Shown here piece by piece: positions 13,722 to 31,287 of a stretch of DNA of 64,000 nt. Position numbers and translations under genes: made by a program. Source of the stretch: Nitrospirota bacterium (GTDB taxonomy: Bacteria > Nitrospirota > UBA9217); assembly GCA_035623825.1 (NCBI GenBank), contig DASPSR010000005.1:18313-82312 (forward strand), read 5' to 3'. The notes under the pieces are model-generated. The model was not told the DNA's origin. It searched no databases and saw only the letters and a list, made by a program, of their open reading frames with translations. How positions within the stretch are numbered: position 1 is the first letter of the stretch; each line of letters begins with the position of its first letter.

Positions 13722-14061
13722 ATGCTCTCCTTATTTTATGTAAGGTGTTTGAGGTTCACGGTACAGGGACGTCAAGACTGTACGAAAGTTGTATTCGGTG
13801 GCGGGCCATTTGCTCCGCCGATATTATCAGCAATCTACCTCATATTGGCGCCGAGTGCAATACTTTCCTGCCGGCGGAGTCAGTTCGACATCTCACGGAG
13901 CAGAGAGATACTGAACAGTCTTTCTATAAGGGTCCCTGTGTCATCTTGACAACATGATGAGCAAGGTATATTGTATCTAAAACGGAGGACAAAGGCGTCT
14001 CGCCATTTCTTTGACGCATCTCAAAGGATATTTTGAAATCTCTGGGGAGGAGCATGCACCT

Positions 14062-14658
14062 ATGGAAAACAAAGACAAACCCTTGCCGAAACCGCCCAAC
14101 AGAGTTAGCGGAGGGAAAAAACAGTTTGGGCAGGAAGATGAGTGGGGATCGCTCCTGGCTGACCGCATGGCAGCGGCCATGGCAGAAGGAAAGCTAGATG
14201 ATTTTTTGAAAGAGGAGTTGTCGGATAATGAATATGCGAGGAACCTAGCGACAATGATGATGGGCATGACGGGGATGTTGCCTGCTGGCGGGGGACCGTC
14301 TTCTTCGACCGCGCCAGTGTTGGAGGAGGAGGCATCTTCGGCAGGGGCTGGAACGCGGGATTCAATGAGTACAGCAGACACGATGCCGGCAGACGTTAGA
14401 AAAGCGATCGAGGGCGGAGATGTGAAAGGATTGATGGAGCTACTTCGACGCGAACATCAAAAACGGATGCCCGGACCGGAACCGGCTGCGGAAGAAAAGG
14501 CTGCTGGGCCCCGTCCTGCCGACCACCCCACTATTGATAAGAATGTCATAGATGCATTGATACGAATTGCATCGGAAAACAGCGTTACCACGGACTGGAT
14601 TGTCCTACGGGCCATCAAATTCTACGTTCAGGAATATCAGAAGACGGGTAGGCTGTAA
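14062..14658 (+). CDS. Hypothetical protein with possible C-terminal ribbon-helix-helix domain
   Basis: 198 aa ORF with SD GGAGGAG; C-terminus TIDKNVIDALIRIASENSVTTDWIVLRAIKFYV resembles the CopG/RHH pattern. Confidence 0.6.
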   Translation: MENKDKPLPKPPNRVSGGKKQFGQEDEWGSLLADRMAAAMAEGKLDDFLKEELSDNEYARNLATMMMGMTGMLPAGGGPSSSTAPVLEEEASSAGAGTRDSMSTADTMPADVRKAIEGGDVKGLMELLRREHQKRMPGPEPAAEEKAAGPRPADHPTIDKNVIDALIRIASENSVTTDWIVLRAIKFYVQEYQKTGRL

Positions 14659-14705: not shown

Positions 14706-15872
14706 CTAATCTGTTGCTAGAAACCCCTGTACCAGTCTTTTGATCTCCAAATGATGCACCGGAATGTTCGGTACGTCCTTGTTCCCGGGAATCGCCAGAA
14801 CATGGATGAACGCTGGACCTTTCCGCGGGCCTCTCATCGCACCCACCAAATCCTTCGCGTCCGCCACTTTATCCGTATTCCTGATCCCGAACCCTTTCGC
14901 CACCTGCTCAAGGTCTACGCAGGACGACGCAAACGTCGGCTGGTTTCCGGTGGAGCCATAGGCGCCGTTATCGATGGCGACGATCGTGAGGTTTTTCGGC
15001 GCAAGAAAGGCGGCCGTTGCCAGCGCACCTGGGTTCATAAGGAGACTTCCGTCTCCGTCAATGACGACCACCTCTTTTTTCGAGTTCTGTGCTATGCCGA
15101 GGCCGATGGGCGTGGCCATGCCCATGCTTCCGAGCATGTAGAAGTTCGAAGGCTGGTGCTTTATGAGGTAAAGCTCCTTGGAGGGCCAGCCGAGATTACT
15201 GACAACGACTTTCTTTTCAAGATATGGCGCGATTAGCTGGAGGATTTCGAACCTTGTACACTGCGCGGTTTGCATTCCTTTTGCCTCCCGCCTTTCAATT
15301 AAGATAGCAGGAGCCTCTTCGTCTTTGACGCCGCAGGTAGCTTGACCTGCCGCTGTCGGGGCACGCGGCGCTTCGCAAGCTGAATCTTCCCACACCGCGG
15401 GACTAAGCAGAAAAGCGTGAATCCTGTTCTTCAGAAAAACCCGGGGCAGTTCCCTGTCAACGACGCTGAAATCGTCTCTTGAGTTTATCTCGGAAAACGT
15501 GATTTCCGCACCGTTCAGGATTCCGGGGAGCCTTTGGCCCATGGGGACCTGGGCCTCGATCTTTTCCTTATAGACGCCCCTCCGGCTCACAAAAAGAGCG
15601 AGGGGAAGCTCATAGAAAGCAGTGAGGGAAAGAAGGGCGTTGATCATGTTCCCGACACCGGAGCTCTGGACGAACACTGCCGGCCGTCTGCCCGAGAGTG
15701 CGGCGCCCGCACAGATCCCGACACCCTCTTCCTCTCTCGTGAGGGGAACATGATGGAAAGACCCAGCCAGCATCTCAAGCATGGTCTTGATCTTCTCGCA
15801 GGGAAGGGAGGCGGTAAAGTCCACCCCATGCGTCTTGAGCATGGCTAGGAGTTCTTCTTCAGGACGTTGCAT
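14706..15872 (-). CDS. comDE: Fused sulfopyruvate decarboxylase ComDE (TPP-dependent)
   Basis: N-half SLPC...LTREEEGVGICAG...QSSGVGNMINAL...RGVYKEKIEAQVPMG (ComD); C-half NFYMLGSMG, IDGDGSLLMN...DNGAYGSTGNQPT TPP motif (ComE); low-complexity linker. Confidence 0.88.
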   Translation of the reverse strand: MQRPEEELLAMLKTHGVDFTASLPCEKIKTMLEMLAGSFHHVPLTREEEGVGICAGAALSGRRPAVFVQSSGVGNMINALLSLTAFYELPLALFVSRRGVYKEKIEAQVPMGQRLPGILNGAEITFSEINSRDDFSVVDRELPRVFLKNRIHAFLLSPAVWEDSACEAPRAPTAAGQATCGVKDEEAPAILIERREAKGMQTAQCTRFEILQLIAPYLEKKVVVSNLGWPSKELYLIKHQPSNFYMLGSMGMATPIGLGIAQNSKKEVVVIDGDGSLLMNPGALATAAFLAPKNLTIVAIDNGAYGSTGNQPTFASSCVDLEQVAKGFGIRNTDKVADAKDLVGAMRGPRKGPAFIHVLAIPGNKDVPNIPVHHLEIKRLVQGFLATD

Positions 15873-17104
15873 AGCAGGTCCTCGATCTCCTTCTCCGTTA
15901 TCTTCTTTGAGATGAACTTGGGAACAACCGTATAGGTCTTTTTCTCCTGCCGCAGTCTTTCTTCACCGCCGCCGGTGATGTTCAGCAATACGGTATCGCT
16001 CTTCCGGATCGCACCAGTTTGCACGGCTTCTGTGAGCACCGCGACAGCCACAGCGGAGGCAGGCACGATGTCGATGCCCTCCGACTCGCGGAAGGTCTCT
16101 ATTGCAGCATACACCGCCTCGTTCCTGACGCCGTACATCGTACCGCCGGTTGCAGTGAGCGCGTCATACACTCCGCCTATTACCGAGTAGGCAGGATATC
16201 GAGTCGAAAGAACCCTGGTCGTGATGTGGGAGATCAGTTCGGGCTTCAGGTCATCGGGAAACAGGGTACGACTGCTCTTGTTCCAGGCGTGGAGCATGGG
16301 CGCAAACGGAAGGTTCTGCCCCAAATGCAGGGTGGTCAGGCGATTGCCAAACCGGCCATCGCGCACGAACCGCTCCGCCATCTCCCAGGCCCCGATGGCC
16401 CCCGTGCCGCTTCCTACGGCCTGAACGTAATGGTCCGGCAGTTTTCCAGTCTTCGAAACCGTCTCAAGCATCACGATGCCAAGGCCGTCGCGTTTGGCAA
16501 TGTTCTTCACGCCCCCCTCAAAGGGAAACCCGAGGGTCAGAGCGATCTTCTTCGCAACATCGATGGCGTCCGCATAGTCACCGTCGCCAACAGCGAGCGT
16601 CGGAATGAGTGATGAACGATTGAGATACCACATCTCCATAAGGCACATCCGGGGCACGACGATGACCACCGGATAGCCTGTCACCGCTGACAAATGCGCA
16701 AAGGCGCGTGCCGTGTTCCCGGCAGAGGCGACAATCAGACCTTCGATGCCGTTCTCCCTGGCGTTCTGGAGCACGACCGCCGCTTCGAACTCCTTGAACG
16801 TGCAAGTCTCAAGGAGCGCCCCTTTCTCAGGCCAGTACCCGCTGAAGGCAATATACAGGTTTTCAAGGCCAAGGCGTTTTGCAAGGCCCTGTGAGCTGTA
16901 TACCAGGGGGCCCGGCTGGGCGATCCGCGGGGCATGAATCGGGAGCCAATTGAACCTCCAGACGCCGTCAGAACCGCGCTCAGTAAAACGAACATCGCTG
17001 TAATCGCTTACGAGAAGCGCATCCTTGCAGTGCTCACAGAAGGCACAGAAGGCGTTCTCAAGAACCTTGCCACAGTTTCTGCATCGAATGGAAAAATGGC
17101 TCAT
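15845..17104 (-). CDS. Cysteate synthase (PLP-dependent, threonine synthase-like)
   Basis: FSGYWPEKGA..TCTFKEFEA (PLP Lys), ASAGNTARAF, GGVKNIAKRDG, QAVGSGTG, QNLPF, LLNITGGG; N-terminal CxxC; adjacent to comDE. Confidence 0.87.
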   Translation of the reverse strand: MSHFSIRCRNCGKVLENAFCAFCEHCKDALLVSDYSDVRFTERGSDGVWRFNWLPIHAPRIAQPGPLVYSSQGLAKRLGLENLYIAFSGYWPEKGALLETCTFKEFEAAVVLQNARENGIEGLIVASAGNTARAFAHLSAVTGYPVVIVVPRMCLMEMWYLNRSSLIPTLAVGDGDYADAIDVAKKIALTLGFPFEGGVKNIAKRDGLGIVMLETVSKTGKLPDHYVQAVGSGTGAIGAWEMAERFVRDGRFGNRLTTLHLGQNLPFAPMLHAWNKSSRTLFPDDLKPELISHITTRVLSTRYPAYSVIGGVYDALTATGGTMYGVRNEAVYAAIETFRESEGIDIVPASAVAVAVLTEAVQTGAIRKSDTVLLNITGGGEERLRQEKKTYTVVPKFISKKITEKEIEDLLCNVLKKNS

Positions 17105-18318
17105 GACTTCTCACCTTCGATCATACTGCCGATCAGTTCCATGATGTCAGTGATCTGTATCCGGTTTTTATGTCCTACCATGGCCTCGTTCACCTTGGCA
17201 TAACAGGCCGGACAGCTCAGGATAAGGCGGTCAGCCTTCTTTGCCACGGCCTCGTCAATGGTCAATCTGCCTATGGCAACGGCGTTTTCGTGATACACTT
17301 TCCTCGCCGCTCCTCCCGCCCCGCAACACCGCGAGTTCAGTCCATTCCGATCAAACTCCAGCAGCGTGAGTCCCGGTATGCTGCGGAGCACCTCCCGCGG
17401 CTCTTCGATCACACCAACTCCACGGGTGAGATAGCAGGGATCGTGATAAATTACCCGTTCATGCAGCTCTTTTCGATACTTCAGCTTGCCTTCTTTTACC
17501 GCCGCTGCAACGAGTTGTGTGATATGACGGATCTTGAACGGGAGGTCGCTGCCATAGAAAACCGGCCAGTCCCTGCTCATGATATTCACGCAACAGGGGC
17601 AGGAGCAGACGAGCGTCTTGACACCCCGTGCCCGGTACCCTTCTACAAGCCGCCTGACCAGGTCCGCGAGCAGGTCGTGCTGACCCGTGATAAAGAGCGG
17701 GAAACCGCAGCAAACCTCTTCCTCGGGAGGGAGCATGGTGAAAGGTTCGCCTATGGCGCCCAGAACCAGTGCGTCGCCCCGCACCATGGGCTGGGCCTCG
17801 TAGGCGCCCGTGCACCCAGCATAATACGCGATTTCCGCCCTCTCGGCAACCTTCACCTGCTCAGGGAACCACGGCTGGTAGCGGTCTGCTGCAGGCTTGT
17901 CGTAGGGATTGCCGCTCCTGCTTACAGCGTTCGGCACGCTGGCCTGTGCGCCGATGGGCCCGAGACCGCGCTTGACCATCTCTTTTCTAAGCGTGGGCCA
18001 GAGACGTTGCGTGAAGATGCCGACGGGGCAGTTCTGTCCGCAGGCGCCGCAGGTGGTGCATTCATAAACCGCCTTCACGAAATCTTCGAGCAGCTTGCGG
18101 TCGACCTTTCCCGGCCCGAAGAACCGCGCCTTAAGACCGTCAGTTGCGCGGATAAACTCGCGGAACATACGGATCTTCTCAGGCGGCGATACCGTGGGGT
18201 TTCCGGTCACATCCTGGATAGGGCAGTGCTTCAGGCACTCTCCGCACTGAGTGCAGGCGTCGATCTCAAGGACCTGTCGGGGAGAGAGTTCTTCCGTGAA
18301 TGATCGTTTATTCTTCAT
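17101..18318 (-). CDS. HdrD-like Fe-S oxidoreductase (2x[4Fe-4S] plus two CCG domains)
   Basis: CTQCGECLKHCP, CTTCGACGQNCP, YYAGC..EVCCG..CPCC, YHDPC..RCCGAGG..CPAC. Confidence 0.88.
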   Translation of the reverse strand: MKNKRSFTEELSPRQVLEIDACTQCGECLKHCPIQDVTGNPTVSPPEKIRMFREFIRATDGLKARFFGPGKVDRKLLEDFVKAVYECTTCGACGQNCPVGIFTQRLWPTLRKEMVKRGLGPIGAQASVPNAVSRSGNPYDKPAADRYQPWFPEQVKVAERAEIAYYAGCTGAYEAQPMVRGDALVLGAIGEPFTMLPPEEEVCCGFPLFITGQHDLLADLVRRLVEGYRARGVKTLVCSCPCCVNIMSRDWPVFYGSDLPFKIRHITQLVAAAVKEGKLKYRKELHERVIYHDPCYLTRGVGVIEEPREVLRSIPGLTLLEFDRNGLNSRCCGAGGAARKVYHENAVAIGRLTIDEAVAKKADRLILSCPACYAKVNEAMVGHKNRIQITDIMELIGSMIEGEKS

Positions 18319-18994
18319 GCATCACCAAACGAAGCGCCTTCTTCCGCTTTCTCGCCTCCATCATCACCAGCGGGGCCGTGAAGATGTGCGTTGGCAGGAA
18401 AGGGATCAGCACCAGAACAAGAATAAAATGAAGTAAGAACAGCAGACTGGCCGGCGCAGCGGCCGGCCTGAGCGTCACAATGCCCCATGCAAACAATTTT
18501 ACGTCCACAAGATCTGGCTTGTACAGAACGTGCATCAGGACGCCCAGAGAGCTGATTACAAGCACCAGGCAGAGAAGGAACATGTTAGCAGGAGAGGCAT
18601 ACTTTTCCCACCTGGTGAACAGCCTTATGACTAGGATGTATACCAAAGCAGGAGGAAGGACGTACCCGGCTATCGTTCCCGGCGTCTGTATGCACCATAC
18701 CCATGCTGGAACAGGGTTCAGAAAATACCGCAAATGCCGAAGGAGAACCAGAAGAAAGCTTGCGTGGAAAGCCCACTCCCCGACCCAAAGAGCGGGATTC
18801 ACCATCAAAAGCCTTGTGAACAGAAAAACATCTGAGACCGTGAGCGCCCATACCTTCGCCGTTGTTGGAGAGGCTGGTTCGGTGGAAAGTCTTTTCATTG
18901 CCTTCCACCATACCAGCCCATGCAGAAGAAACCGCGCCCAGAATACCGAATATGCGCTGTAGGCTGCAACGACCAATATCGTCCCCATAGTCAT
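18308..18994 (-). CDS. DsrM/HmeC/HdrE-like (NarI-family) membrane cytochrome b
   Basis: About five hydrophobic helices; FHASFLLVLLRHLRYF and LHFILV...THIF His pairs; overlaps the hdrD-like start. Confidence 0.78.
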   Translation of the reverse strand: MTMGTILVVAAYSAYSVFWARFLLHGLVWWKAMKRLSTEPASPTTAKVWALTVSDVFLFTRLLMVNPALWVGEWAFHASFLLVLLRHLRYFLNPVPAWVWCIQTPGTIAGYVLPPALVYILVIRLFTRWEKYASPANMFLLCLVLVISSLGVLMHVLYKPDLVDVKLFAWGIVTLRPAAAPASLLFLLHFILVLVLIPFLPTHIFTAPLVMMEARKRKKALRLVMHEE

Positions 18995-19016
18995 CAGTCC
19001 GGCAAGAGCTGTTTAC

Positions 19017-19025
19017 AGTATAACA
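19017..19025 (-). promoter_or_regulatory. Extended -10 promoter for the dsrM-hdrD-cysteate synthase-comDE operon
   Basis: Minus strand TGT-TATACT 22 nt upstream of ATG 18994; no good -35. Confidence 0.45.
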
Positions 19026-19122: not shown

Positions 19123-19440
19123 TCATTTTTTCACTACGAACGTGATGCTTGCATCCTTGGGGACGTTCAGGCCCGCCTCGGCCTCGATTGCTTTCAGAAT
19201 GCCGGAAGGCACGGGACAGGCCACATGCTTGAGGTGTTTTGATGCTGACCGGTACACGGGATTACTCTGGAAGCCAGTAAGCGCGGCGAACCGGTCTAGG
19301 GTCGCGATGTCTTCCAGCATCTTCTTCACCATGCCGCACTCCGTGTCCAGGGAAATCGCGATTGTTTTGTCTTTCCTGGTTTCTGCTCTAATGGAGACGG
19401 AAAAACCGCATGTTCCTGAGTTGACTATTACCGTTGTCAT
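19123..19440 (-). CDS. Small Cys/His-rich conserved hypothetical protein (DUF6951-like)
   Basis: 105 aa; GTCGF, TECG, HVACPVPSGILKAIEAEAGL. Confidence 0.65.
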   Translation of the reverse strand: MTTVIVNSGTCGFSVSIRAETRKDKTIAISLDTECGMVKKMLEDIATLDRFAALTGFQSNPVYRSASKHLKHVACPVPSGILKAIEAEAGLNVPKDASITFVVKK

Positions 19441-19562: not shown

Positions 19563-21548
19563 CTATGCCTTTATCTCAACGGGGGTGTTCGATTTTTCGA
19601 GCAGCTCCTTCAGATTCGGGAACTTGTCTTTCATGTGCGGGATATGCATTGCTTGCATAAACTCCTTCTCAAAGGCCGGCTCAGTTGCGATTTCGACGAA
19701 CTGCACCCAGCGGGCTCGTTCGTCCGCCTCAGTACGCTTCCTGCGGTTCAGAAGCGCCATCCGTGCACCATCACCCGCAGCGTTTCCTACGACGACGACC
19801 TTCTCGATCGGCACGTCGGGGAACATCCCCAGGGTGAGAGACGCCTCGCGATCGATATGGCTGCCGAAGGCGCCTGCAAGCTCGACGCGGTCGAGCTTGG
19901 TGACGCCCATCTTCTGCATCATGAGCTTTGCACCAGTGTAGAGAGCGCCCTTGGCGAGCTGGAGCGCCCTCACATCACCCTGGGTCACGGTGATGTCCTG
20001 ATTTATCGATGTTTCTTCAGCCCAGGCGAGTACGTATTCGGGCTTCCCGTCGGCATCGCGGCGCACGCGGTTGGTCCCTGTATCCATGATGAACTTGCCG
20101 CTCTTGTCGATGATGCCCGCCGTGAACATCTGAGCTATGACGTCAATAATGCCGGACCCGCAAATGCCCTTGGCGTTGATCTTGCCCTCGATGTGGGTGT
20201 GCCAGTCAGCCTTGCCGATGACCATGTACTGCGGATCTTTCGTTGCGGGATCGATGCGCACCTTCTCGATCGCCCCGGGAGCGGCACGCATCCCGAACTT
20301 GATCTGGGCGCCCTCGAAGGCCGGACCGGTGGCGCAGGAGGTGGAGCAGACCCGGTCCTTGTTGCCCAAGAGCAGCTCGCCGTTCGTTCCGATGTCGATG
20401 ATCAGCACCATCTCGTCCTGATTGTATTGCTCCTGGGCGATCAGCACGCCTACGTTGTCGGCGCCCACGAAGCCGGCCTCGAGAGGCAGAACATGGATAT
20501 AAGAGCCGGGGTTGATGCGGATTCCGAGGTCTCGTGCCTTGATATCGAGAGAGCGCTGAACCGCCGGAATAAAAGGAGAGCGTCCGATGAAGGTCGGGTT
20601 CAGGCCCAAAAAGATATGATGCATGGCAGTATTGAAAACAATGGTGAGGTCATCGATGGTGTGGCCCTGTTGCGGCCCGTCCTTTTGGACTTCGGCAACG
20701 ACCTTCTCGATGATCTCGTTCAAACCGGTGATGATGGAGTCCTGCATGGTCTTGAGGCCGCTTTCGTTCGCCATGGCATACGTGATGCGTGACATCACGT
20801 CTTCTCCGTAGGGTACCTGGGGGTTCATCATCGACTCGGTGTTGATCACCTTGCCCGTTGAGAGGTCGCAAAGGTAGCCCACGCAGGTCGTGGTGCCGAT
20901 ATCAACCGCCAGACCATAGCACACGTCCACGTGGCCAGGCTCGGCCTTGATGATCTCCCTGCCCTGCCACACCGTGAGCGTGATGGTCCATTCTCCCTTT
21001 CGAAGGATGTCCTGCAGGTCCCGCAGGACCTGGTAGTCCATCGTGAGGCCTTTCAGGCCATAGGTCTCTTCGAGGGCGTTGACAATGCGCTCGAAGTCCC
21101 CGGTCGTCATGTCGTGGAGCGTCGGTTTGGTAAGCGACAGGGGGTACTTCTTGACCGCCGGATCGAGAGCGATGGAGAGCTCTTTGGCCGCTTTCCGTAC
21201 CACCTGCTTCCCTGCCCGGGACCGCTCGGGAACAAAGACCTTCAAGTCGCCACGCACCTCGCATTGGCAGGCGAGCCTGATGCCTGGTCCGTCCTCGGGT
21301 TTGATATGCTTTAGCTCGTCCGGAGCCGGGTGATGCGGGAAAATATGCACCATGCCCGACTCGATGTTGTCCTTCTCGAAGTACCCTTCTTCGATCCGGA
21401 CTTTGCACTTGCCACAGACCTTTTTGTTGCCGCAGAGCGCCTCGATGTCGACTCCGAGCGCCTGTGCGGCCTGGAGGACTGTCTTTCCTTCATCAACCTC
21501 GCCGCGGCGGCCCGAGGGCTGGAATATCACTTTGTATTTCTTGGACAT
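19563..21548 (-). CDS. ATP-dependent reductive activator of corrinoid proteins (RACo/RACE, ASKHA family)
   Basis: N-terminal [2Fe-2S] CGNKKVCGKC...RLACQC; DIGTTT, DIGTNGE, ATGPAFEG, GICGSG, AGAFG, GNAAGDGA. Confidence 0.92.
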   Translation of the reverse strand: MSKKYKVIFQPSGRRGEVDEGKTVLQAAQALGVDIEALCGNKKVCGKCKVRIEEGYFEKDNIESGMVHIFPHHPAPDELKHIKPEDGPGIRLACQCEVRGDLKVFVPERSRAGKQVVRKAAKELSIALDPAVKKYPLSLTKPTLHDMTTGDFERIVNALEETYGLKGLTMDYQVLRDLQDILRKGEWTITLTVWQGREIIKAEPGHVDVCYGLAVDIGTTTCVGYLCDLSTGKVINTESMMNPQVPYGEDVMSRITYAMANESGLKTMQDSIITGLNEIIEKVVAEVQKDGPQQGHTIDDLTIVFNTAMHHIFLGLNPTFIGRSPFIPAVQRSLDIKARDLGIRINPGSYIHVLPLEAGFVGADNVGVLIAQEQYNQDEMVLIIDIGTNGELLLGNKDRVCSTSCATGPAFEGAQIKFGMRAAPGAIEKVRIDPATKDPQYMVIGKADWHTHIEGKINAKGICGSGIIDVIAQMFTAGIIDKSGKFIMDTGTNRVRRDADGKPEYVLAWAEETSINQDITVTQGDVRALQLAKGALYTGAKLMMQKMGVTKLDRVELAGAFGSHIDREASLTLGMFPDVPIEKVVVVGNAAGDGARMALLNRRKRTEADERARWVQFVEIATEPAFEKEFMQAMHIPHMKDKFPNLKELLEKSNTPVEIKA

Positions 21549-21656: not shown

Positions 21657-22310
21657 TTATTTCTCATTCGTCCCTCGGACCTTCGCATTGCTTCTCCCGT
21701 AAGGGCAGACATTGATGCAAAAACCGCAATTGGGCTTGCCGACGGTTTTCAATTTGGCCGTCTTGTGGCTCTTACAGACGTCGAGCCTGACTAGTTCCAC
21801 GAAAGGGTCGTGACGGGACCACACGGCCCCCGTTATCGCTTTTGACGGGCAGTGCTCGACGCAGAGCTCGCAATCGCCGCACCTGCTTTGTTCGATCGGC
21901 TCGTCCGCCGCAAGGCGAGCATCGGTCAGAACGGTCGCCAGTGAGAGTCGCGGGCCATGCTTGGGATTGATTAGGAGGCCGTTCTTTCCAACCCAGCCGA
22001 TACCGGCCGATGTAGCCGCCATCTTATGGGTGAACAGAGAATAGAGCTTGGAGATGAAGGACCCATTCGTGCGGTCCGAGTCAGGCGGGATGGCAAGGGT
22101 GCGGTGGCCCCTGGCCTTCAGGAACCTCACAGTCCGCCGCTGAAGCTTGGCCAGCAGGGCGAGGGTGTTCTCGTTCAATTTTCTGTCAACGCCGATCGAA
22201 ACAGCACGGTTCAGATGGCTGATCTCCCCGCTCAGGTATCCGCGCAGATCAGCAACGCCGACCACTGTGGCGCCAAGATCGAACAGCTCCTTGCGGAGCG
22301 AGGTCTTCAT
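21657..22310 (-). CDS. Epoxyqueuosine reductase/reductive dehalogenase-like 4Fe-4S protein
   Basis: HKMAATSAGIGWVGKNGLLINPKHGPRLSLATVLTD, CGDCELCVEHCP, CGFCINVCP. Confidence 0.8.
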   Translation of the reverse strand: MKTSLRKELFDLGATVVGVADLRGYLSGEISHLNRAVSIGVDRKLNENTLALLAKLQRRTVRFLKARGHRTLAIPPDSDRTNGSFISKLYSLFTHKMAATSAGIGWVGKNGLLINPKHGPRLSLATVLTDARLAADEPIEQSRCGDCELCVEHCPSKAITGAVWSRHDPFVELVRLDVCKSHKTAKLKTVGKPNCGFCINVCPYGRSNAKVRGTNEK

Positions 22311-23002
22311 TTTGCGCTCTTCTTCGCTTCGGCCTCATCCTTCATCTTCTTGAGGGAGCTGATCATGTTTATGGCGTCCCTCAAGGCGTTCGTCGCATCC
22401 TTAGCGTACCCGTCGGCGCCGTACTTTTCGGCAACGTCCTGGGACACCGGGGCGCCACCGATCATGATCTTCACATTGGGGTTCTTGGCCCGAAGGTCCT
22501 CGATGACCTTCTTCATACCGGTCATGGTCGTGGTCATCATGGCCGAGAGACAGACCAGGTCAGAATCGGTCCGGAGCTGCTCCTGCACAAACTTGTCGAG
22601 CGGAACGTCGCGGCCAAGGTCATAAACGGTGAATCCGGCCACGTCGAACATCATTTTTACAATGTTCTTGCCAATGTCGTGCACGTCTCCTTCTACGGTC
22701 CCGATCACTACCGAGCCTCTCACACCGAGGTCTAGCTGCTTGACATGCGGCTTTAAGATGTCGAGTCCCGCATACAGAGCGTCGGCGCACATCAGGAGCT
22801 CAGGCACGAAGTACTCCTGGGCCTCGAACATCCGGCCGACCTCTACCATTCCTGAGACCAGGCCGTTGAAGATGGCGTCGTTCGCGTCAACTCCCTCCGC
22901 GAGCACCTCGTTGGCGGCCTCCTTGGCAGTGTCCTCATCGTATTGTATGACCGCGTTCCTCAGCTTCTCCAACAGCCCTTTCTTTTTTTCTTCTGTAGCC
23001 AT
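22307..23002 (-). CDS. Methyltransferase cognate corrinoid protein (MtbC/MttC-like)
   Basis: GDVHDIGKN (DxHxxG), SAMMTTTM, IGGAP; N-terminal cap domain EYFVPELL. Confidence 0.95.
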   Translation of the reverse strand: MATEEKKKGLLEKLRNAVIQYDEDTAKEAANEVLAEGVDANDAIFNGLVSGMVEVGRMFEAQEYFVPELLMCADALYAGLDILKPHVKQLDLGVRGSVVIGTVEGDVHDIGKNIVKMMFDVAGFTVYDLGRDVPLDKFVQEQLRTDSDLVCLSAMMTTTMTGMKKVIEDLRAKNPNVKIMIGGAPVSQDVAEKYGADGYAKDATNALRDAINMISSLKKMKDEAEAKKSAK

Positions 23003-23006
23003 AGGA

Positions 23007-24026
23007 TTACCTCCTGTAGTTGTTCACTTCGTCCATCATCGCCTTGAAATTATCGACCGGCACCGTGGGCCAGATGTCACAGCCCGGCCAGACCGCGCTC
23101 ACACCGTCATCAATGCACTTCCGGACCGTGGCACGGACCAAGTCCGGGGTCCCGGCGACGAGAACGTTGTAAGGGTCGTAGTTCCCGAATACGAGTGCCT
23201 TGGGGCCCAGCTTCTTGCGGGTCTCGGCGACGTCATTCTTCTGGTCCACGCTGATCGCCCTGGCGCCGCTTTCCGCCATGAACGGCACGATGTCGTTCGT
23301 CTTGCCGCAGATGTGGAGAACGCTCGGGACCTTGAGTTTCGCGAAGATCTTCGTCAGGTACGGCAGGATAAGGCTCTTGAAGACACGGGGTGAGAGCACA
23401 TCTGAAGTAGCGCCCATCTCCCTCACGGTGATGTAGTCTACGCCTGCCTTTTCGTATTCTTGCGCCACCTGGATGGTCACCCCGGAGAGCGTGTCCAAGA
23501 GCTTGCCGATCTTGTCCGGCTTTTTGAAGGACAGCTTCAGGAGGTCGTTCAACTCCATTACCTGTCCGGCCAGGGTGAAGGGCCCGAGCACGTATGAGCC
23601 GACAGCCGCTTTGTCGCCAATATCGCTCTTCATGAACTTGATCACATCGAGCATCATGGGGACCCTCCCGCGCCTGACGAGGTCGGCGGGTACCACCAGT
23701 TCCATTTCTGCCTCGTTACGTACCAGTTTCTTCTTGATCGTGGGGTAGAGCAGGTCCTCGGAATGGGCATAGACGTTGATTTCGCAGCCGAGGGCTTCTG
23801 CCTCGATGCAGAGATCAAAAGGGGCGACGCCGCATTCGAAGCCGAACAGTTTATGCGTTGATGCGGCCGCAGCGGCCATCATCTTTGCGTCTAGATGAGT
23901 TGCCGCGAACTTCTGGTTGAGGGACTTGAGACCCTCGGTGGTCACGTTCCCCATGCCGCTGAAGCACGGCGGCCTGTCCACTGCCTCGCCGGCAAAGAGC
24001 TTTAGTACACGTTCTCGTGCGTTCAT
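23007..24026 (-). CDS. MtaA/CmuA-family (UroD-fold) methylcobamide:thiol methyltransferase, copy 1
   Basis: PFDLCIEAEALGC, GPFTLA, LHICG and PGCDI (Zn-binding H-x-C...C). Confidence 0.9.
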   Translation of the reverse strand: MNARERVLKLFAGEAVDRPPCFSGMGNVTTEGLKSLNQKFAATHLDAKMMAAAAASTHKLFGFECGVAPFDLCIEAEALGCEINVYAHSEDLLYPTIKKKLVRNEAEMELVVPADLVRRGRVPMMLDVIKFMKSDIGDKAAVGSYVLGPFTLAGQVMELNDLLKLSFKKPDKIGKLLDTLSGVTIQVAQEYEKAGVDYITVREMGATSDVLSPRVFKSLILPYLTKIFAKLKVPSVLHICGKTNDIVPFMAESGARAISVDQKNDVAETRKKLGPKALVFGNYDPYNVLVAGTPDLVRATVRKCIDDGVSAVWPGCDIWPTVPVDNFKAMMDEVNNYRR

Positions 24027-24163: not shown

Positions 24164-25111
24164 TCATTTTCTCGCTCCCCCCGATTCGAGTTTAGTCAGG
24201 AAGTCTGAGAAGCACTTCCTGATCGGAAGCTGTGCATTGTCAGGTATCTTTCCCTGCTCCGAATAAACGAGCGTCGAGAGCAGGATATGCGCCGTAGCTA
24301 CGGCCGGGAAGATCCGGGACGCAGTGACGATGGGCCCGTAAAAGCTATAATCGCTCCAGAGCACCGAAGACATCCCCTGCGCCACGGCATCCATGGCCTT
24401 GAAGGCGTCGAGGCTCCAGAGCGTCTTTGCCTCCTTCCACATATGAGTGCCGTTCGAATAGGCGCCGCCGCAGGGAAGGCCGTACTTTTCCTTGATCAGG
24501 CGGTTCGCCACGAGCGAGAAGGACGTTGACGGCAGGTTCATGACCGATGTGTCGACGATCACGGTATCGAAGTCTCCGGCTCCCTGTTCCAGCAACCGCT
24601 CTAGCGAACTCACCCTGCCCGCGGGTGACTGGTCCTTATCGTCAAAGGCCTGCACCACAACATGCTTTATGCCGAGGTCCTTTAGTTTCTGCACCTGCCC
24701 CTTGACGTCTTTGTCCCAGGGCGTAATGCTGTTATACAGGAACTTGTCCTGCACCCCGAGCTTGGACACGTACTCCGTCGCCTTCGCGCGCTGCTCGGCG
24801 ACCCACATGTCGATGCCAAAGGGCATGTTCGTGGTCTCAAGGAAGAAATCGATGTAGATCTTTGCCTCTTCCGGCGTGTTGGCCACCATGGCGACCATGC
24901 CGGGGACGCCGGTTGACGCAGAGAGCGATTCCTGCTGCTTGATCAGTTCGGAGGCGCGCCTGCGGTCGAAATTGCCCTTCCGGTCCTGCATGATCTTGTC
25001 CTTGTTGTGGAACATGGAGGCGATCAGGAGCGGCGGCCTGTCGCCGGGTTGTCCGCCGATCGCCGTGCCGGCGATGGAGTAGACCTTTTGTTCTTTAGCA
25101 AACTTGAACAT
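24164..25111 (-). CDS. MtrH/MtgA-like pterin (THF):corrinoid methyltransferase
   Basis: MFKFAKEQKVYSIAGTAIGGQPG N-terminus typical of MtrH; YNSI, IKEKYGLPCG, YGPI; no other mtr subunits nearby. Confidence 0.85.
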   Translation of the reverse strand: MFKFAKEQKVYSIAGTAIGGQPGDRPPLLIASMFHNKDKIMQDRKGNFDRRRASELIKQQESLSASTGVPGMVAMVANTPEEAKIYIDFFLETTNMPFGIDMWVAEQRAKATEYVSKLGVQDKFLYNSITPWDKDVKGQVQKLKDLGIKHVVVQAFDDKDQSPAGRVSSLERLLEQGAGDFDTVIVDTSVMNLPSTSFSLVANRLIKEKYGLPCGGAYSNGTHMWKEAKTLWSLDAFKAMDAVAQGMSSVLWSDYSFYGPIVTASRIFPAVATAHILLSTLVYSEQGKIPDNAQLPIRKCFSDFLTKLESGGARK

Positions 25112-25310: not shown

Positions 25311-25754
25311 TTAAAATACGCCGTGGTCGAACTTTGGCTGTGGAAGATACTCCCACTTCTCCCCCTTGCGGTACTTAGCCTCAATGTCAAGGCACTTCAG
25401 TGCGTACTCGAAGGCATAAGGAATGCCCGGCCCACCAGGCACGAAGCCCCCGAGGATCATGCCCACTGATGCCGCCTCGAAAATCTCGCCCGTGGTCGCT
25501 CCCGCATTGATCGCAGGGATCACGTGGATTATGCACCGCGGCGAGCAGTAACCCACACCGCCTGCCATAAACATCAGTTCCTTCACCTTACGGGAAAGGG
25601 CCCCATCGCCAAATATTGTCGCATAGAAATCGGCGAAAGTCCTCCCCGGTTCAGGGGTCACGGTGTTGATGATCTGAAACATCCTCGGCACGAACCCGCA
25701 CTGCTTCTTCATGTACTCGTTCACTTCTTCCAATGTCATTTTCTTATCAGCCAT
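25311..25754 (-). CDS. Carboxymuconolactone decarboxylase/AhpD-family protein
   Basis: GALSRKVKELM, YCSPRCIIH, AGATTGEIFEA; SD GGAGGT before ATG 25754 (alternative GTG 25829). Confidence 0.82.
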   Translation of the reverse strand: MADKKMTLEEVNEYMKKQCGFVPRMFQIINTVTPEPGRTFADFYATIFGDGALSRKVKELMFMAGGVGYCSPRCIIHVIPAINAGATTGEIFEAASVGMILGGFVPGGPGIPYAFEYALKCLDIEAKYRKGEKWEYLPQPKFDHGVF

Positions 25755-26027
25755 TTTTTTTACCTCCCCTTGCCCGGGTGCTTTCTGTGCCCCGGAAAAA
25801 AGTTTTTTCAACTCCTCCAAGATGCCCACAAACCGCACCTCCTTCCTTACATATAAGCTGGAACCGCCTCACCTCCTTTTCTCTAGTCCGGATAAACCGG
25901 AATCAACAAAATAGCGTCACGGTCACGATGCCGGTTCATCTTTGCGGCCACATAGTCCGTGTTCTCATCTTTCCGTTTCGAACTAAGCCTCACGATACAA
26001 GCCTCGTAACCATATGACGTCACCGTC

Positions 26028-27056
26028 TTATGGTTTCGATTCATGCGCCGCCTGAATGAACTTCCTGATATTGTCATAGGGCACCGTGGGCGGAATATCG
26101 CAGCCCGGCATGAGCACAAAGCCGCCGCCCGTACCGCAAGTTTTAATTACATCCTTGCAGGTGTTTTCCACGTCCTGCACGGAGCCGTTTAGCATAATCT
26201 TCACCGGGTCCACATTACCGCCGAAACACATCTTCCCGTGGAGCACTTCATTTGCCTTTACCATGTCCGTCTTGTGGTCCAGGCTGATGCAGCTTGCCCC
26301 TGTTTGCGGGAAGAGGTCAAGTCGGTCCGTGGTGTTGCCGCAGATGTGGACCAGCGTATGAACGCCCTTGGACCTCGCCCAGTCAGTGAATTTCTTGAGA
26401 TAGGGCACAGCAAACTTCTCGAACTGCTTCCGGGAGATGAGATCTCCCGAGGCTGTGGGGTCCGCAAGGCTTATGACCTCAAGCGTTTTGTCCGCGACGA
26501 TTGGTTCGTAGAGGTGGATCAGGAGATCGGTGGCGAAGTCCACGACCTTCTCGACAAAGGCCGGCTTCTTGAAGGTGGCCTTCATCATGGCCTCCTCTCC
26601 CACGAATCGGGCGCCGAGGGTGAAGGGGCCCCAAGCCGTCATGGTCACAGCATAGGTGTCGCCGATCTTCGCTTTCGTCTGGCGCAAAGACTTTTTTACA
26701 ACATTTATGGTCTCGTCCTTGTCTATGTCAGCAATCTTGAGCTTCGCTAGGTCCTCCTCCGACGACACGAAGTGGCCCTCAAGGTCAGGCGCACCCATCT
26801 CGCGGAACTTGATCTTCCCGCCCAGGGCCGAGGCGTGGAAATTATTGTAACCCGAACCGGCGTATACGACATCGCACTGAAGCGTTTCGCTCATGGCAAC
26901 GAGCATGGCGGTCATCTTGTCAGCGTTCCGTGCAAGTTCCTCGAATGACGTCCCGAACCGCTTGATGCTCCACATACCCGCGCCGAAGAGGGTCACCGGC
27001 AACCTTTCGGTCTTGCCTCCCTCAAAGGCTTTGAGAATCACGTTCTTCGGTTTCAT
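26028..27056 (-). CDS. MtaA/CmuA-family (UroD-fold) methyltransferase, copy 2
   Basis: WGPFTL, ADPTASGDLIS, VHICG, GNVDP, MPGCDIP (Zn-binding H-x-C...C). Confidence 0.88.
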   Translation of the reverse strand: MKPKNVILKAFEGGKTERLPVTLFGAGMWSIKRFGTSFEELARNADKMTAMLVAMSETLQCDVVYAGSGYNNFHASALGGKIKFREMGAPDLEGHFVSSEEDLAKLKIADIDKDETINVVKKSLRQTKAKIGDTYAVTMTAWGPFTLGARFVGEEAMMKATFKKPAFVEKVVDFATDLLIHLYEPIVADKTLEVISLADPTASGDLISRKQFEKFAVPYLKKFTDWARSKGVHTLVHICGNTTDRLDLFPQTGASCISLDHKTDMVKANEVLHGKMCFGGNVDPVKIMLNGSVQDVENTCKDVIKTCGTGGGFVLMPGCDIPPTVPYDNIRKFIQAAHESKP

Positions 27057-27090: not shown

Positions 27091-27420
27091 TCAGATTGCA
27101 TAACTGTGGACCATCCGCTTGAAATCTTCAAGGTCAAGAGGCGTCTCAACCGCAGCCTCATTATAATTAGTGCGCCCGAAGCCAAGACACAGGACGGGTA
27201 TTTCCGGTGCCACGGTCTTGATGATATGCACAGCGTCCTCCGCGGACAGGCCAAAAGGCTCTGAGTCAACGATGATGAGGTCATAACTCCGGCGCAGGAC
27301 TTTCTGGACGGCGTGGGCGGGGTGTTCGACAGTTTCCACATTATGCCCTTCATCCCGAAGGACCCCGTACAGGCTCTTAATCATCAGGGGATTGGAGGAA
27401 CAGAGGATGATATCTTTCAT
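27091..27420 (-). CDS. Stand-alone degenerate receiver-domain protein
   Basis: LRDEGHNVETV...YDLIIVD...PEIPVLCL CheY-like pattern; ATG 27420 preferred because 27432 lies upstream of the predicted sigma54 start site. Confidence 0.65.
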   Translation of the reverse strand: MKDIILCSSNPLMIKSLYGVLRDEGHNVETVEHPAHAVQKVLRRSYDLIIVDSEPFGLSAEDAVHIIKTVAPEIPVLCLGFGRTNYNEAAVETPLDLEDFKRMVHSYAI

Positions 27421-27434
27421 GCTAGCAGACATGG

Positions 27435-27773: not shown

Positions 27774-28640
27774 CTACTTTTTCCCGATGGCATGCAGTAT
27801 TTCGCTCACCGAGTCTGATCGATTCATGGTGTAAAAGTGGAAATACTTCACTCCGTTTTTCATCAGGTCCTCACATTGCCGGACCGCGAATTCCACGCCG
27901 CGCTTCCGCATTTCTTCGGGCATGTCCATCACCGGCTCCATCCTTTCGAGGATTTCCCTCGGCACCGTAGCATTGCAGAGACTGGCGAACTCTGCGACTC
28001 TCTTACAGTCTATGATCGGCATGATTCCCGGTAGAACGGGTATCGAGATGCCGAGTTTCTCGGCCCGGTCCATGAAGGCGTAATAGTAGTGGTTGTCGAA
28101 GAACATCTGAGTGATGGCGAAATCCGCACCAGCATCGATTTTTTGCTTCGTAAATTCCATGTCTTTCTCTATGCTTGGCGACTGCCCATGCCCCTCGGGA
28201 TACACTGCCACGGCAATAGAAAAAGAGCCGTATTTCTGGATGAGATCGACGAGGTCTCGTGCGTATTTAAACTCTCCCTGGCCTAGGCTAAAGCATGGTG
28301 CGTTCCTTGGCGGGTCGCCGCGTAGCGCAAGAATGCTGTCGATGCCGGCGGCCTGGTACTTCTCAAGGAGCACAGACAGGGACGCCCTCGTCGCCCCGAC
28401 GCACGTAAGGTGCGACATTACGGTGAGCTCAGTCTCATTTTTTATCTCTGTAAGGGCCTCGAACGTCCTATCCTGAGTGGTGCCGCCTGCCCCGTAAGTA
28501 ACGGAAACGTACAGCGGGTCGAAGACCTTAAGTTCTTGTACGACCTTAATGAACGCGTCTCTTCCCGCATTCGACTTCGGCGGGAAGAATTCGAAGGATA
28601 TCCCTTCCTTCCGCTCTTTCAGTTTTTCTATGAGTTTCAT
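27774..28640 (-). CDS. metF: 5,10-methylenetetrahydrofolate reductase
   Basis: SFEFFPPK, SVTYGAGG, HLTC, LALRGDPP, ITQMFFD, HFYTMNR. Confidence 0.95.
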   Translation of the reverse strand: MKLIEKLKERKEGISFEFFPPKSNAGRDAFIKVVQELKVFDPLYVSVTYGAGGTTQDRTFEALTEIKNETELTVMSHLTCVGATRASLSVLLEKYQAAGIDSILALRGDPPRNAPCFSLGQGEFKYARDLVDLIQKYGSFSIAVAVYPEGHGQSPSIEKDMEFTKQKIDAGADFAITQMFFDNHYYYAFMDRAEKLGISIPVLPGIMPIIDCKRVAEFASLCNATVPREILERMEPVMDMPEEMRKRGVEFAVRQCEDLMKNGVKYFHFYTMNRSDSVSEILHAIGKK

Positions 28641-28805: not shown

Positions 28806-29681
28806 ATGAAAACGACAATTGTCTGCGGTTTGCTGGGTTCGGGAAAGACAACGTTTATCAGGAACTTCGTGAAGGGCCTGGCGGGGAAAGCCGTTGTTCT
28901 GGTGAACGATTTCGGCGCCGCAGGAATCGACGGAGAGATATTCTCCACGGACGGAATCGAATCTGTCGAGCTGCCGAGCGGGTGCGTGTGTTGCACCCTT
29001 AAGTTCGACCTGATCACCACGATCCAGAGAATCGCCAAGACGTTCGCTCCAAAGCACCTCCTGATCGAACCGAGCGGTGTTGCATCTCCTTCCGGCGTGC
29101 TTGAGGCACTCGAAGGTGCTGGAATCGGGACGGCGAACGTGGTCGGTATCGTAGATGCCGTGGAGTTTGCCGAACTCTACGAATCGGGCAGGTACGGAAG
29201 CTTCTTCGAGGATCAGATAGCCAACTCCGACGTTATCCTCGTGAACAAGACTGACCTCGCCGGAGAGGCCGCCATCGCTGCTGCGGAACGGTTGATCGCA
29301 TCCATCAATCCCCATGCCGTACTTCTCCGTACGGTGAACGCCGATATTGATATTCCCCTTCCCCGGTCGCCCCAACACCGCAGAATTCGTTCAGGCGATT
29401 GTCATTTCAATTTTGAGACGGTGTCGTTAAGGATCATCAGTAAGCCTGCTTTCTCCGTAATAAAAGACTTTTTTGATGAACTAGCGAAAGGACGGTTCGG
29501 GTCAGTGGCGCGGGCAAAGGCGCTGGTGAACACGCAGGAGGGACCGTACCGGTTCGACACCGCCTACGGCAAGATTAACGCGGTCCGCTTTGAAAAGGAC
29601 ATCGAGAACAGCAGGCTTGTCGTCATCGGAGAAGCGCTGGACAGGCAGGGCATGGAGCGTGCTCTCTTCGCGGGCATATAA
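28806..29681 (+). CDS. CobW/COG0523 G3E GTPase metallochaperone
   Basis: GLLGSGKTT, LVNDFG, GCVCC, IEPSG, NKTD, C-terminal SRLVVIG. Confidence 0.9.
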   Translation: MKTTIVCGLLGSGKTTFIRNFVKGLAGKAVVLVNDFGAAGIDGEIFSTDGIESVELPSGCVCCTLKFDLITTIQRIAKTFAPKHLLIEPSGVASPSGVLEALEGAGIGTANVVGIVDAVEFAELYESGRYGSFFEDQIANSDVILVNKTDLAGEAAIAAAERLIASINPHAVLLRTVNADIDIPLPRSPQHRRIRSGDCHFNFETVSLRIISKPAFSVIKDFFDELAKGRFGSVARAKALVNTQEGPYRFDTAYGKINAVRFEKDIENSRLVVIGEALDRQGMERALFAGI

Positions 29682-31180: not shown

Positions 31181-31287
31181 AATAGGAAACTCAACGGCGA
31201 AGGTGTGAAAAACACGCAGATTTTTCGTAACTGCAAGACTTAAAGATTTCCTCTGCGCTTTTCGCAGTGAAATGCGCCTTTGATTTC

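Follow-up and report, generated by a model that had tools for sequence, protein, structure and literature searches.

A putative coenzyme M-type thiol module with an HdrD-like membrane pair in a corrinoid methyltransferase island of Dsr-bearing Nitrospirota

This analysis concerns a four-gene operon (positions 14706–18994, minus strand) in a 64,000 nt stretch of a Nitrospirota genome (contig DASPSR010000005.1, positions 18,313 to 82,312), referred to below as the window. The operon encodes a cysteate synthase and a fused sulfopyruvate decarboxylase (ComDE) immediately behind a membrane cytochrome b and an HdrD-like iron–sulfur protein. Together the four genes make a single unit, termed here the ‘thiol module’ of a larger island in anaerobic, Dsr-bearing Nitrospirota. 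The interpretation favoured here, tentatively and at rather less than even confidence, is that the operon makes sulfoacetaldehyde and then a thiol of the coenzyme M (CoM) type, and that the membrane pair reduces the S–S or C=S form of that thiol with electrons from quinol. A CoM-type product is proposed because the biosynthetic, MtaA and HdrD/cytochrome b families co-localise in bacteria that lack Mcr. The identities of the genes, their linkage, the absences and the cysteine pattern were established directly.

The four open reading frames (ORFs) are arranged in tandem on the minus strand, beginning with the gene for a NarI/DsrM/HdrE-type cytochrome b, the membrane subunit (228 aa, 18308..18994, assigned by family search and from its orthologues). 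This is followed by the HdrD-like Fe–S protein (405 aa, 17101..18318; PF02754 and PF13183), the cysteate synthase (419 aa, 15845..17104; TIGR03844) and ComDE (388 aa, 14706..15872; TIGR03845, TIGR03846, TPP_enzyme_N and TPP_enzyme_C). The ORF coordinates confirm the successive overlaps of 11, 4 and 28 nt described in an earlier, sequence-only reading of this DNA, and family searches agree with it that the operon contains neither an aminotransferase nor a ComF-like gene. Overlap is also a feature of related loci. The cytochrome b and hdrD genes overlap at 55 of 69 loci, by 11 nt in 50 of these, and cysteate synthase and ComDE overlap by 25 or 28 nt at 60 of 61; for hdrD and cysteate synthase the count is 24 of 65 (4 nt in 21 of the 65), the median gap being 18 nt.

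The assignment of the cysteate synthase is firm, as judged from a score of 467.6 bits against TIGR03844 (cut-off 324.9) and at most 84 bits against threonine synthase models. A separate ThrC-like gene elsewhere in the genome scored 53.6 bits against the cysteate synthase model. The assignment of ComDE is good, if less firm: its alpha half exceeds the TIGR03845 cut-off (177.2 bits against 147.95), and its beta half, at 219.7 bits, lies 1.8 below that of TIGR03846 (221.5). Phosphonopyruvate decarboxylase was rejected as the better name for this ORF (210.9 bits, far below the cut-off of 312.5). Sulfopyruvate is favoured as the ComDE substrate because the gene is coupled to cysteate synthase in 60/61 loci. 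Together with a housekeeping aminotransferase, the two enzymes are strongly indicated by their family membership to convert phosphoserine and sulfite to sulfoacetaldehyde, the reactions with which the Methanosarcina ‘type 2’ route to CoM begins.

Sulfoacetaldehyde could, in principle, yield isethionate, taurine, sulfoacetate or a precursor of sulfolipids instead of a thiol, with the membrane pair only moving electrons. A final step without a recognisable gene is in keeping with such a product, as are the Bacteroidota cysteate synthase relatives found among the ESM Atlas neighbours, which probably serve sulfonolipid synthesis, and the TauE/SafE-family permease beside the pair in one genome (G068). 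This outcome is nevertheless quite improbable. The operon holds no sulfoacetaldehyde reductase, aminotransferase or acyltransferase; cysteate is ruled out as the end of the pathway because its synthase is translationally coupled to ComDE in nearly all loci, as counted above; and a complete Hdr-type disulfide site and the MtaA-type thiol methyltransferases of the island would be left unexplained.

The distribution of the module was surveyed in 401 evenly sampled Nitrospirota genomes, for which the cysteate synthase and HdrD lists were compared by hand. Cysteate synthase and the HdrD clade were each present in 68 genomes, of which 63 had both and five had one only in either case, and 328 genomes had neither. 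Carriers thus make up 63–68 of the 401 sampled species genomes and are spread over more than ten families. Where both genes are present, cysteate synthase adjoins the HdrD-clade gene in 59/63 genomes, the four exceptions all belonging to family f25; the Hdr-like pair is therefore linked to com genes elsewhere, as the sequence-only reading needed it to be. The gene order that this reading proposed to look for in other genomes also recurs. Sixteen of 36 genomes of the same family have cysteate synthase (against 0/24 genomes of eleven other families), and all 16 keep hdrD, cysteate synthase and comDE in the order of the window. Moreover, cysteate synthase and ComDE directly follow hdrD at 57 of the 65 HdrD-seeded loci with at least 2.7 kb of downstream sequence. 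This recurrence far exceeds chance. Among the five genomes listed with cysteate synthase only, one has a frameshifted and one a split hdrD beside cysteate synthase, a third has a 41%-identical HdrD-like gene adjoining it, and the other two genomes are 86% complete.

No ComDE and no true cysteate synthase were present at 71 metagenome loci with HdrD-like genes of 29–40% identity to that of the window (two had a ThrC-family gene below the cysteate-synthase cut-off), and the island is carried by all five sufficiently long loci of at least 67% identity. The absence at 29–40% identity indicates that the linkage is a property of this HdrD clade. In an unrelated metagenome lineage (L137:6741-9221 and L138), a pyridoxal phosphate (PLP) enzyme of the threonine synthase family lies directly 5' of a 36%-identical HdrD-like gene. 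It scores under both the ThrC and the cysteate-synthase cut-offs, and here a beta-replacement PLP enzyme and a CCG protein may have come together independently. Separately, genome G160 contains two full sets of cysteate synthase, HdrD and MtaA1, on contigs C16 and C40. Genomes G004 and G028, which have MtaA1 without cysteate synthase or HdrD, are uninformative, their contigs ending inside the island.

The host genome is a 3.24-Mb metagenome-assembled genome (MAG) that is 89.65% complete and has a YidC of the bacterial type. It encodes DsrA (569.6 bits), a true DsrK on the same contig, and the acetyl-CoA synthase of the Wood–Ljungdahl pathway, which together mark the organism as a sulfite-reducing or sulfur-disproportionating anaerobe with a Wood–Ljungdahl pathway. 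Since DsrA is present, both sulfite and sulfide should be available in the cell. The best 80 genome loci recovered with the HdrD-like protein are 70–86% identical and come from entries titled Nitrospirota, Thermodesulfovibrionales, Ca. Sulfobium and similar; two titled Rokubacteria and one titled Betaproteobacteria may be binning errors.

The membrane pair has the two-subunit design of HdrDE. The cytochrome b ORF scored 67.8 bits against NF038037 (DsrM), far under the cut-off of 300, and gave no match to PDB sequences; its orthologues in relatives match PF02665 (Nitrate_red_gam). It contains five hydrophobic segments, and His77, His87, His189 and His203 are kept in 38–41 of 50 aligned rows. 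The HdrD-like protein, for which the best NCBIfam match was TfrB (183 bits), has two ferredoxin-type [4Fe-4S] motifs and two CCG domains (PF02754 twice, PF13183). In 50 sequences the ferredoxin cysteines (C22, C25, C28, C32 and C87, C90, C93, C97) are invariant, and the CCG cysteines (C169, C203, C204, C240, C243, C295, C331, C332, C369 and C372) are invariant or at least 90% kept. Because this is the Hdr-type count of ten CCG cysteines, a catalytic S–S site is favoured in the predicted protein.

The AlphaFold model of the HdrD-like protein (pLDDT 93.2) found its best solved fold match in Mycobacterium smegmatis EtfD (9ojn, TMq 0.80), with a LutA model and then HdrB (5odc_B, TMt 0.69) next in rank. 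According to the available sections of PMC13083937, EtfD overlays HdrDE, lacks the extra cysteine of Hdr and for that reason binds a linear 3Fe-4S cluster, so that it acts as a shielded electron wire. The pair could, by analogy, be an EtfD/EMO-like wire that takes electrons from a soluble dehydrogenase, delivers them to menaquinone and acts on no compound of sulfur. MetF, oxidising methyl-tetrahydrofolate (methyl-THF), could be that dehydrogenase, and besides the structural match the wire has in its favour that metF lies in the island and that a putative FolD gene directly precedes cytochrome b at three loci (L127, L129 and L051). EtfD and ETF:menaquinone oxidoreductases (ETF, electron-transfer flavoprotein) do share the cytochrome b, ferredoxin and double CCG architecture of the window's pair, but EtfD is one fused chain in which the linear 3Fe-4S cluster replaces one noncubane cluster and electrons arrive from ETF (PMC13083937, in the sections available). 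In the window each subunit has its own gene, the CCG cysteines number the full ten where EtfD misses one, and no ETF genes are nearby. In rearranged islands, moreover, the pair tracks cysteate synthase/ComDE, DsrE or TauE genes and not metF, and an electron wire of this kind is highly improbable.

Phylogenetic placement points to HdrD. The clade is an isolated one, with 80% identity to its own cluster representative and 45% to the next in a library of 50%-identity clusters. A homologue search with the protein was filled by relatives of at least 80% identity, and its ESM Atlas neighbours were generic CCG clusters. A quick tree of 97 rows was built from 90 of the 150 best representatives (360–470 aa) and seven added sequences, the other 60 representatives being excluded as fragments or fusions. 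Both genomic contexts of the clade unite in this tree (Shimodaira–Hasegawa-like approximate likelihood-ratio test, SH-aLRT, 100). The next neighbours are four unnamed clusters, one with a Desulfobaccales member, and a wider group (SH-aLRT 91) includes HdrD of Ca. Argoarchaeum ethanivorans and Ca. Ethanoperedens as well as an Asgard cluster. These two HdrD proteins, at 37% identity, are the nearest named relatives. The sequence-only reading proposed to place this CCG protein among the HdrD, DsrK and GlpC clades; it groups with Methanosarcinales HdrD, and DsrK is excluded, the host's own DsrK being the outgroup and most distant row. The likeness to the Methanosarcinales enzyme HdrDE, a methanophenazine:CoM-S-S-CoB (CoB, coenzyme B) oxidoreductase, extends to the NarI-type di-haem cytochrome b and to a subunit with two [4Fe-4S] motifs and two five-cysteine CCG domains. 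The differences are the 37% identity, an electron donor that is presumably menaquinone, and the absence of Mcr and hence of a known CoM-S-S-CoB source.

DsrK was considered as an identity for the HdrD-like protein and rejected, with 86–87 bits against an NF045796 cut-off of 400; the true DsrK (731.8 bits, C38:38802-40226) sits elsewhere, with dsrAB nearby on the contig that carries dsrA. A related possibility is that the pair is a second DsrMK-like sulfur relay that acts on the trisulfide or persulfide of a DsrC-, TusE- or DsrE-type carrier, its adjacency to com genes reflecting only a shared sulfite/sulfide metabolism. DsrMK of sulfate reducers is likewise a cytochrome b with a CCG protein that reduces an S–S bond with quinol in a Dsr host, and weak DsrM and DsrK model matches were obtained. 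In addition, five loci have the order DsrE-like, Pyr_redox_2 (SQR-like) flavoprotein, MMPL, cytochrome b, hdrD and LolA-like, with a pair of 70–75% identity, and one locus has a triple rhodanese 3' of the pair. In genome G340 the order is DUF6951, HdrD-like (41%), NarI-like, cysteate synthase, DsrE-like and ComDE. The DsrE-context loci and G340 tie the pair to sulfur carriers. However, all five genomes with a DsrE-context pair also have a cysteate synthase over the cut-off with ComDE adjacent to it elsewhere, two of them with a second pair beside cysteate synthase, so that these contexts do not split the pair from the sulfonate pathway. With a separate DsrK in the host and no DsrC- or TusE-like gene in the window's operon, a second DsrMK-like relay is improbable.

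The enzyme that completes CoM in archaea was sought in the same genomes. The MMP16 model TIGR03287 gave matches to its ferredoxin part only in the window's own genome (at most 31 bits) and was matched in none of five near-complete relatives. PF01837 (COG1900/DUF39, the archaeal ComF family) is absent from these six genomes and from all 68 cysteate-synthase genomes, with ten of the 401 phylum genomes positive, and no McrA was found in the six. In the available sections of PMC12068725, the cluster of Methanosarcina acetivorans consists of MA3297 (cysteate synthase), MA3298 (ComDE) and MA3299 (MMP16/ComF), and MMP16 (COG1900) is the main CoM synthase of that organism. The operon in the window resembles this ‘type 2’ cluster in its adjacent, co-oriented cysteate synthase and fused ComDE genes with a redox Fe–S gene attached; it differs in its bacterial host without McrA and in the HdrD-like/cytochrome b pair that replaces the COG1900 gene.

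Taken at its strictest, this comparison would make the pair the missing CoM synthase, with no other role: sulfoacetaldehyde would combine with sulfide or a carrier persulfide, and quinol-fed CCG clusters would reduce the resulting thioaldehyde or mixed disulfide. The hdrD gene occupies the place of MMP16 in MA3297–3299 (PMC12068725) and COG1900 is missing from every cysteate-synthase genome. The hdrD stop and the cysteate synthase start overlap by 4 nt in 21/65 loci, and a promoter-like motif precedes cytochrome b. In G340, cysteate synthase and ComDE are separated by a DsrE-like gene, and DsrE or rhodanese genes lie beside the pair in other loci. There is also a bacterial precedent in XcbA of Xanthobacter, an Fe–S protein likened to ferredoxin:thioredoxin reductase, which reduces sulfoethanethioaldehyde to CoM (PMC9457059, in the sections available). 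Given XcbA, an Hdr-type reductase is chemically reasonable as the finishing enzyme. XcbA shares with the pair the character of an Fe–S or cysteine-disulfide type reductase but is a soluble 2Fe-2S protein on an unrelated route from phosphoenolpyruvate via sulfoacrylate (PMC9457059). On the other side, an MMP16 mutant of M. acetivorans is rescued by 0.4–1.5 mM sulfide and an abiotic sulfide route has been reported (PMC12068725, sections available). Because sulfide rescues a methanogen without ComF and the present host, which makes sulfide, has DsrA, a dedicated ComF substitute is not required. A quinol-linked membrane complex would also be heavy machinery for a trace cofactor, and the pair, or a relative of 47–71% identity, occurs where cysteate synthase and ComDE were not found and is unlinked from them in f25. 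An exclusive ComF substitute is unlikely. The sequence-only reading had the Hdr-like complex either supply electrons for the final thiolation or recycle CoM disulfides; the linkage, the absence of COG1900 and the XcbA precedent lend this proposal partial support without favouring either role.

About 13 genes on the same strand make up a conserved island, of which the operon forms the 3' end, and this larger corrinoid methyltransferase setting is a feature that the earlier reading had overlooked. Among 43 loci with at least 9 kb of upstream sequence, a reductive activator of corrinoid proteins (RACo), a corrinoid protein and the methyltransferase MtaA1 are together in 39, MtrH in 38 and MtaA2 in 36. 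Both modules are present at 36 of the 40 loci for which both flanks could be seen, with neither at three and methyltransferases only at one, and an MtaA1 orthologue occurs in 64/68 cysteate-synthase genomes. MtaA1 (23007..24026, minus strand, as are all island genes given here) lies above the cut-off of NF004889, the ‘methylcobalamin:coenzyme M methyltransferase’ subfamily (266.4 bits against 244). It aligns with M. mazei MtaA (4ay7) at 165.8 bits, zinc motif H-x-C...C included, and falls short of the equivalog level (MtaA_Meth 254.6 bits against a cut-off of 400, MtbA 183.8 against 600).

In the mechanism proposed here, in which the product, the quinone, the direction, the methyl donor and what the pair acts on are inferred, a sulfide-producing cell would thiolate sulfoacetaldehyde, giving 2-mercaptoethanesulfonate (CoM) or a sulfonated thiol much like it. 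Electrons from the quinol pool would enter through the di-haem cytochrome b and run by way of the two [4Fe-4S] clusters to both Hdr-type CCG clusters, where the HdrD-like subunit would reduce an oxidised or sulfurated form of the thiol, such as a CoM disulfide, a mixed disulfide, a CoM persulfide or a thioaldehyde intermediate. The thiol would then serve the neighbouring zinc methyltransferases of the MtaA type, and the corrinoid protein, RACo, the MtrH-like protein and MetF (with FolD in some islands) would move methyl groups between the thiol or thioether and the tetrahydrofolate of the Wood–Ljungdahl pathway. We infer that the product in these bacteria would be CoM itself. The full proposition, that Dsr-bearing Nitrospirota make CoM by the archaeal phosphoserine route, finish or maintain it with an HdrDE-type enzyme and use it in a corrinoid pathway tied to Wood–Ljungdahl metabolism, is doubtful as a whole.

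Several observations weigh against a CoM-dependent pathway of this kind. The genomes are related MAGs, some of them fragmented, so that the counts given above overstate their independence. Mcr, which produces CoM-S-S-CoB for HdrD, is lacking, and with it a known source of CoM disulfide, and the closest solved fold, EtfD (TMq 0.80), does not reduce disulfides. In the alignment with 4ay7, with a numbering offset assumed, MtaA1 appears not to retain the active-site residues named in the available sections of PMC13618148. A wide range of thiols is accepted by MtaA-type enzymes (PMC13618148), and bacterial ‘MtaA’ proteins of the UroD family need not use CoM. In family f25 the pair stands apart from cysteate synthase and ComDE (4/4 genomes), and in the loci of this type that were read its neighbours are the DsrE, SQR-like flavoprotein, MMPL and LolA-like genes described above; one of the f25 genomes, G191, appears from matching coordinates to be the L094 genome. 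Finally, in genus g39 (three genomes, 81–97% complete) the island is present and neither cysteate synthase (E<=1e-80) nor ComDE (E<=1e-10) was found, which suggests that the methyltransferases are not strictly dependent on the module.

The same genus bears on the role of the pair. In G076 (g39) a NarI-like/HdrD-like pair (47%) lies 5 kb from the methyltransferase island, so that pair and methyltransferases can exist without endogenous sulfoacetaldehyde synthesis. A pair without cysteate synthase and ComDE argues against a purely biosynthetic role and fits action on the cofactor. In G068 (L203, C144, 5847-9590) neither cysteate synthase nor ComDE was found, and a TauE/SafE-family permease about 1 kb upstream of the cytochrome b/HdrD pair (71%) might take up sulfonate. 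On balance we lean towards a reductase that acts on S–S forms of the finished cofactor, perhaps also completing its synthesis, in preference to a purely biosynthetic enzyme. Three genes come after the G076 island (L202, G076:C3, 13382-16511), for a radical SAM protein, a SAM methyltransferase and a radical SAM protein that binds B12.

A promoter before cytochrome b is plausible. The extended −10-like motif TGTTATACT (19017..19025, minus strand) was read directly about 23 nt 5' of the cytochrome b ATG, and a TGNTANNNT motif occurs within 120 nt 5' of the cytochrome b start at 28/68 related loci, with alike spacing in those printed. Of the shared promoter claimed by the sequence-only reading, the motif is therefore present; the −35 box is absent, and a sigma-70 consensus scan did not call TGTTATACT. 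No terminator was called by the scan 3' of ComDE, and an Rfam search of the window returned no riboswitch, a tRNA being the only match. In one peat metatranscriptome run, 11% of sampled words were present and contigs matched 14289-14441, 17933-18252 and 18799-18997 with 0–1 differences. These contigs are strandless and the library may contain DNA, and the match indicates only the presence of the organism's sequence and is no proof that the operon is transcribed. A convergent 215-aa ORF without a family match (14011-14658, plus strand) lies 3' of ComDE, as it does in many loci at 36–61% identity; it is low-complexity, and its C-terminal end resembles, by eye, a ribbon-helix-helix.

Proceeding upstream from the operon, the island begins with a DUF6951 protein of 105 aa (19123..19440; PF22263, 106.5 bits), which is syntenic in relatives and always follows RACo (19563..21548; RACo_C_ter, Raco_middle, RACo_linker and Fer2). 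Next are a small syntenic protein with two [4Fe-4S] clusters that family matches liken to the C-terminal part of QueG and reductive dehalogenases (21657..22310) and the B12-binding corrinoid methyl carrier (22307..23002; PF02310 and PF02607, with TIGR02370 at 200.6 bits under its cut-off of 215.3). Beyond MtaA1 lies the MtrH-family methyltransferase, predicted to transfer methyl groups between corrinoid and pterin (24164..25111; NF002142 at 339.6 bits, over the cut-off of 287; MtgA 163.7). It is followed by a CMD/AhpD-like protein of 175 aa with a C-x3-C motif (25311..25838; PF02627, 25.3 bits), the MtaA/CmuA-family zinc methyltransferase MtaA2 (26028..27056; PF01208, with TIGR01463 at 187.9 bits below cut-off and H-x-C...C kept) and the methylene-THF reductase MetF (27774..28640; TIGR00676 at 337.2 bits, over the cut-off of 293.7). 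The AhpD-like protein, between MtaA2 and MtrH, is 64–95% identical across loci, which places it among the most conserved genes of the island, and it could be a thiol:disulfide partner.

The set resembles the three-component Mta/Mts corrinoid systems of methanogens in its UroD-family zinc methyltransferase, corrinoid protein, MtrH-type methyltransferase, activase, MetF and FolD, and the cmuAB-metF-folD genes of chloromethane users form a similar set. It differs from the Mta, Mts and cmu systems in having two UroD-family enzymes, the conserved AhpD-like protein and a coupled sulfonate-thiol module. The FolD assignment concerns a gene that encodes about 311 aa and stands between DUF6951 and cytochrome b (L127:6297-7232, L129:6263-7195 and L051:8240-9178), which was read as a putative FolD from its N-terminal sequence by eye and, if so, would tie the thiol module into a THF one-carbon operon. 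A second CCG protein (about 468 aa, 27–33% identical) occupies the same position at L118:6651-7796 and is present in the variant islands L053, L063, L071, L072, L076, L116, L124 and L126; in the tree it groups with the unnamed clusters P0158 and P0140. Between MetF and a sigma-54 two-component pair (29846-33318) are a 291-aa ORF with an N-terminus resembling a CobW/COG0523-type GTPase (28806-29681, plus strand) and a 113-aa receiver-like ORF (27091-27432, minus strand), both putative assignments by reading. A second MtaA-like gene, 52% identical to MtaA1, lies outside the window (G000:C9:13442-14431).

CoM is known from methanogens, from alkane-oxidising archaea and, by a different pathway, from a few aerobic alkene-oxidising bacteria. 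A literature search, with supplements outside its scope, found no description of this gene cluster or of CoM in Nitrospirota. The present results hint at bacteria that produce no methane and yet synthesise and use a cofactor of methanogens. If the proposal is true, it would mean CoM-dependent one-carbon metabolism in bacteria that have neither Mcr nor alkene oxidation, and would provide either a second way, independent of COG1900, to complete CoM synthesis, a step long debated, or a case of HdrDE functioning without Mcr, alternatives that could be tested with four genes. It would also bear on the transfer of HdrDE, MtaA and CoM modules between Methanosarcinales and bacteria, and if widespread Nitrospirota of groundwater, peat and sediment do make CoM, then the cofactor would no longer be a clean biomarker of methanogens. 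For the organisms themselves, an abundant clade that cycles sulfur and has yet to be cultured, it would add an unforeseen cofactor to the metabolism of methyl groups and sulfur.

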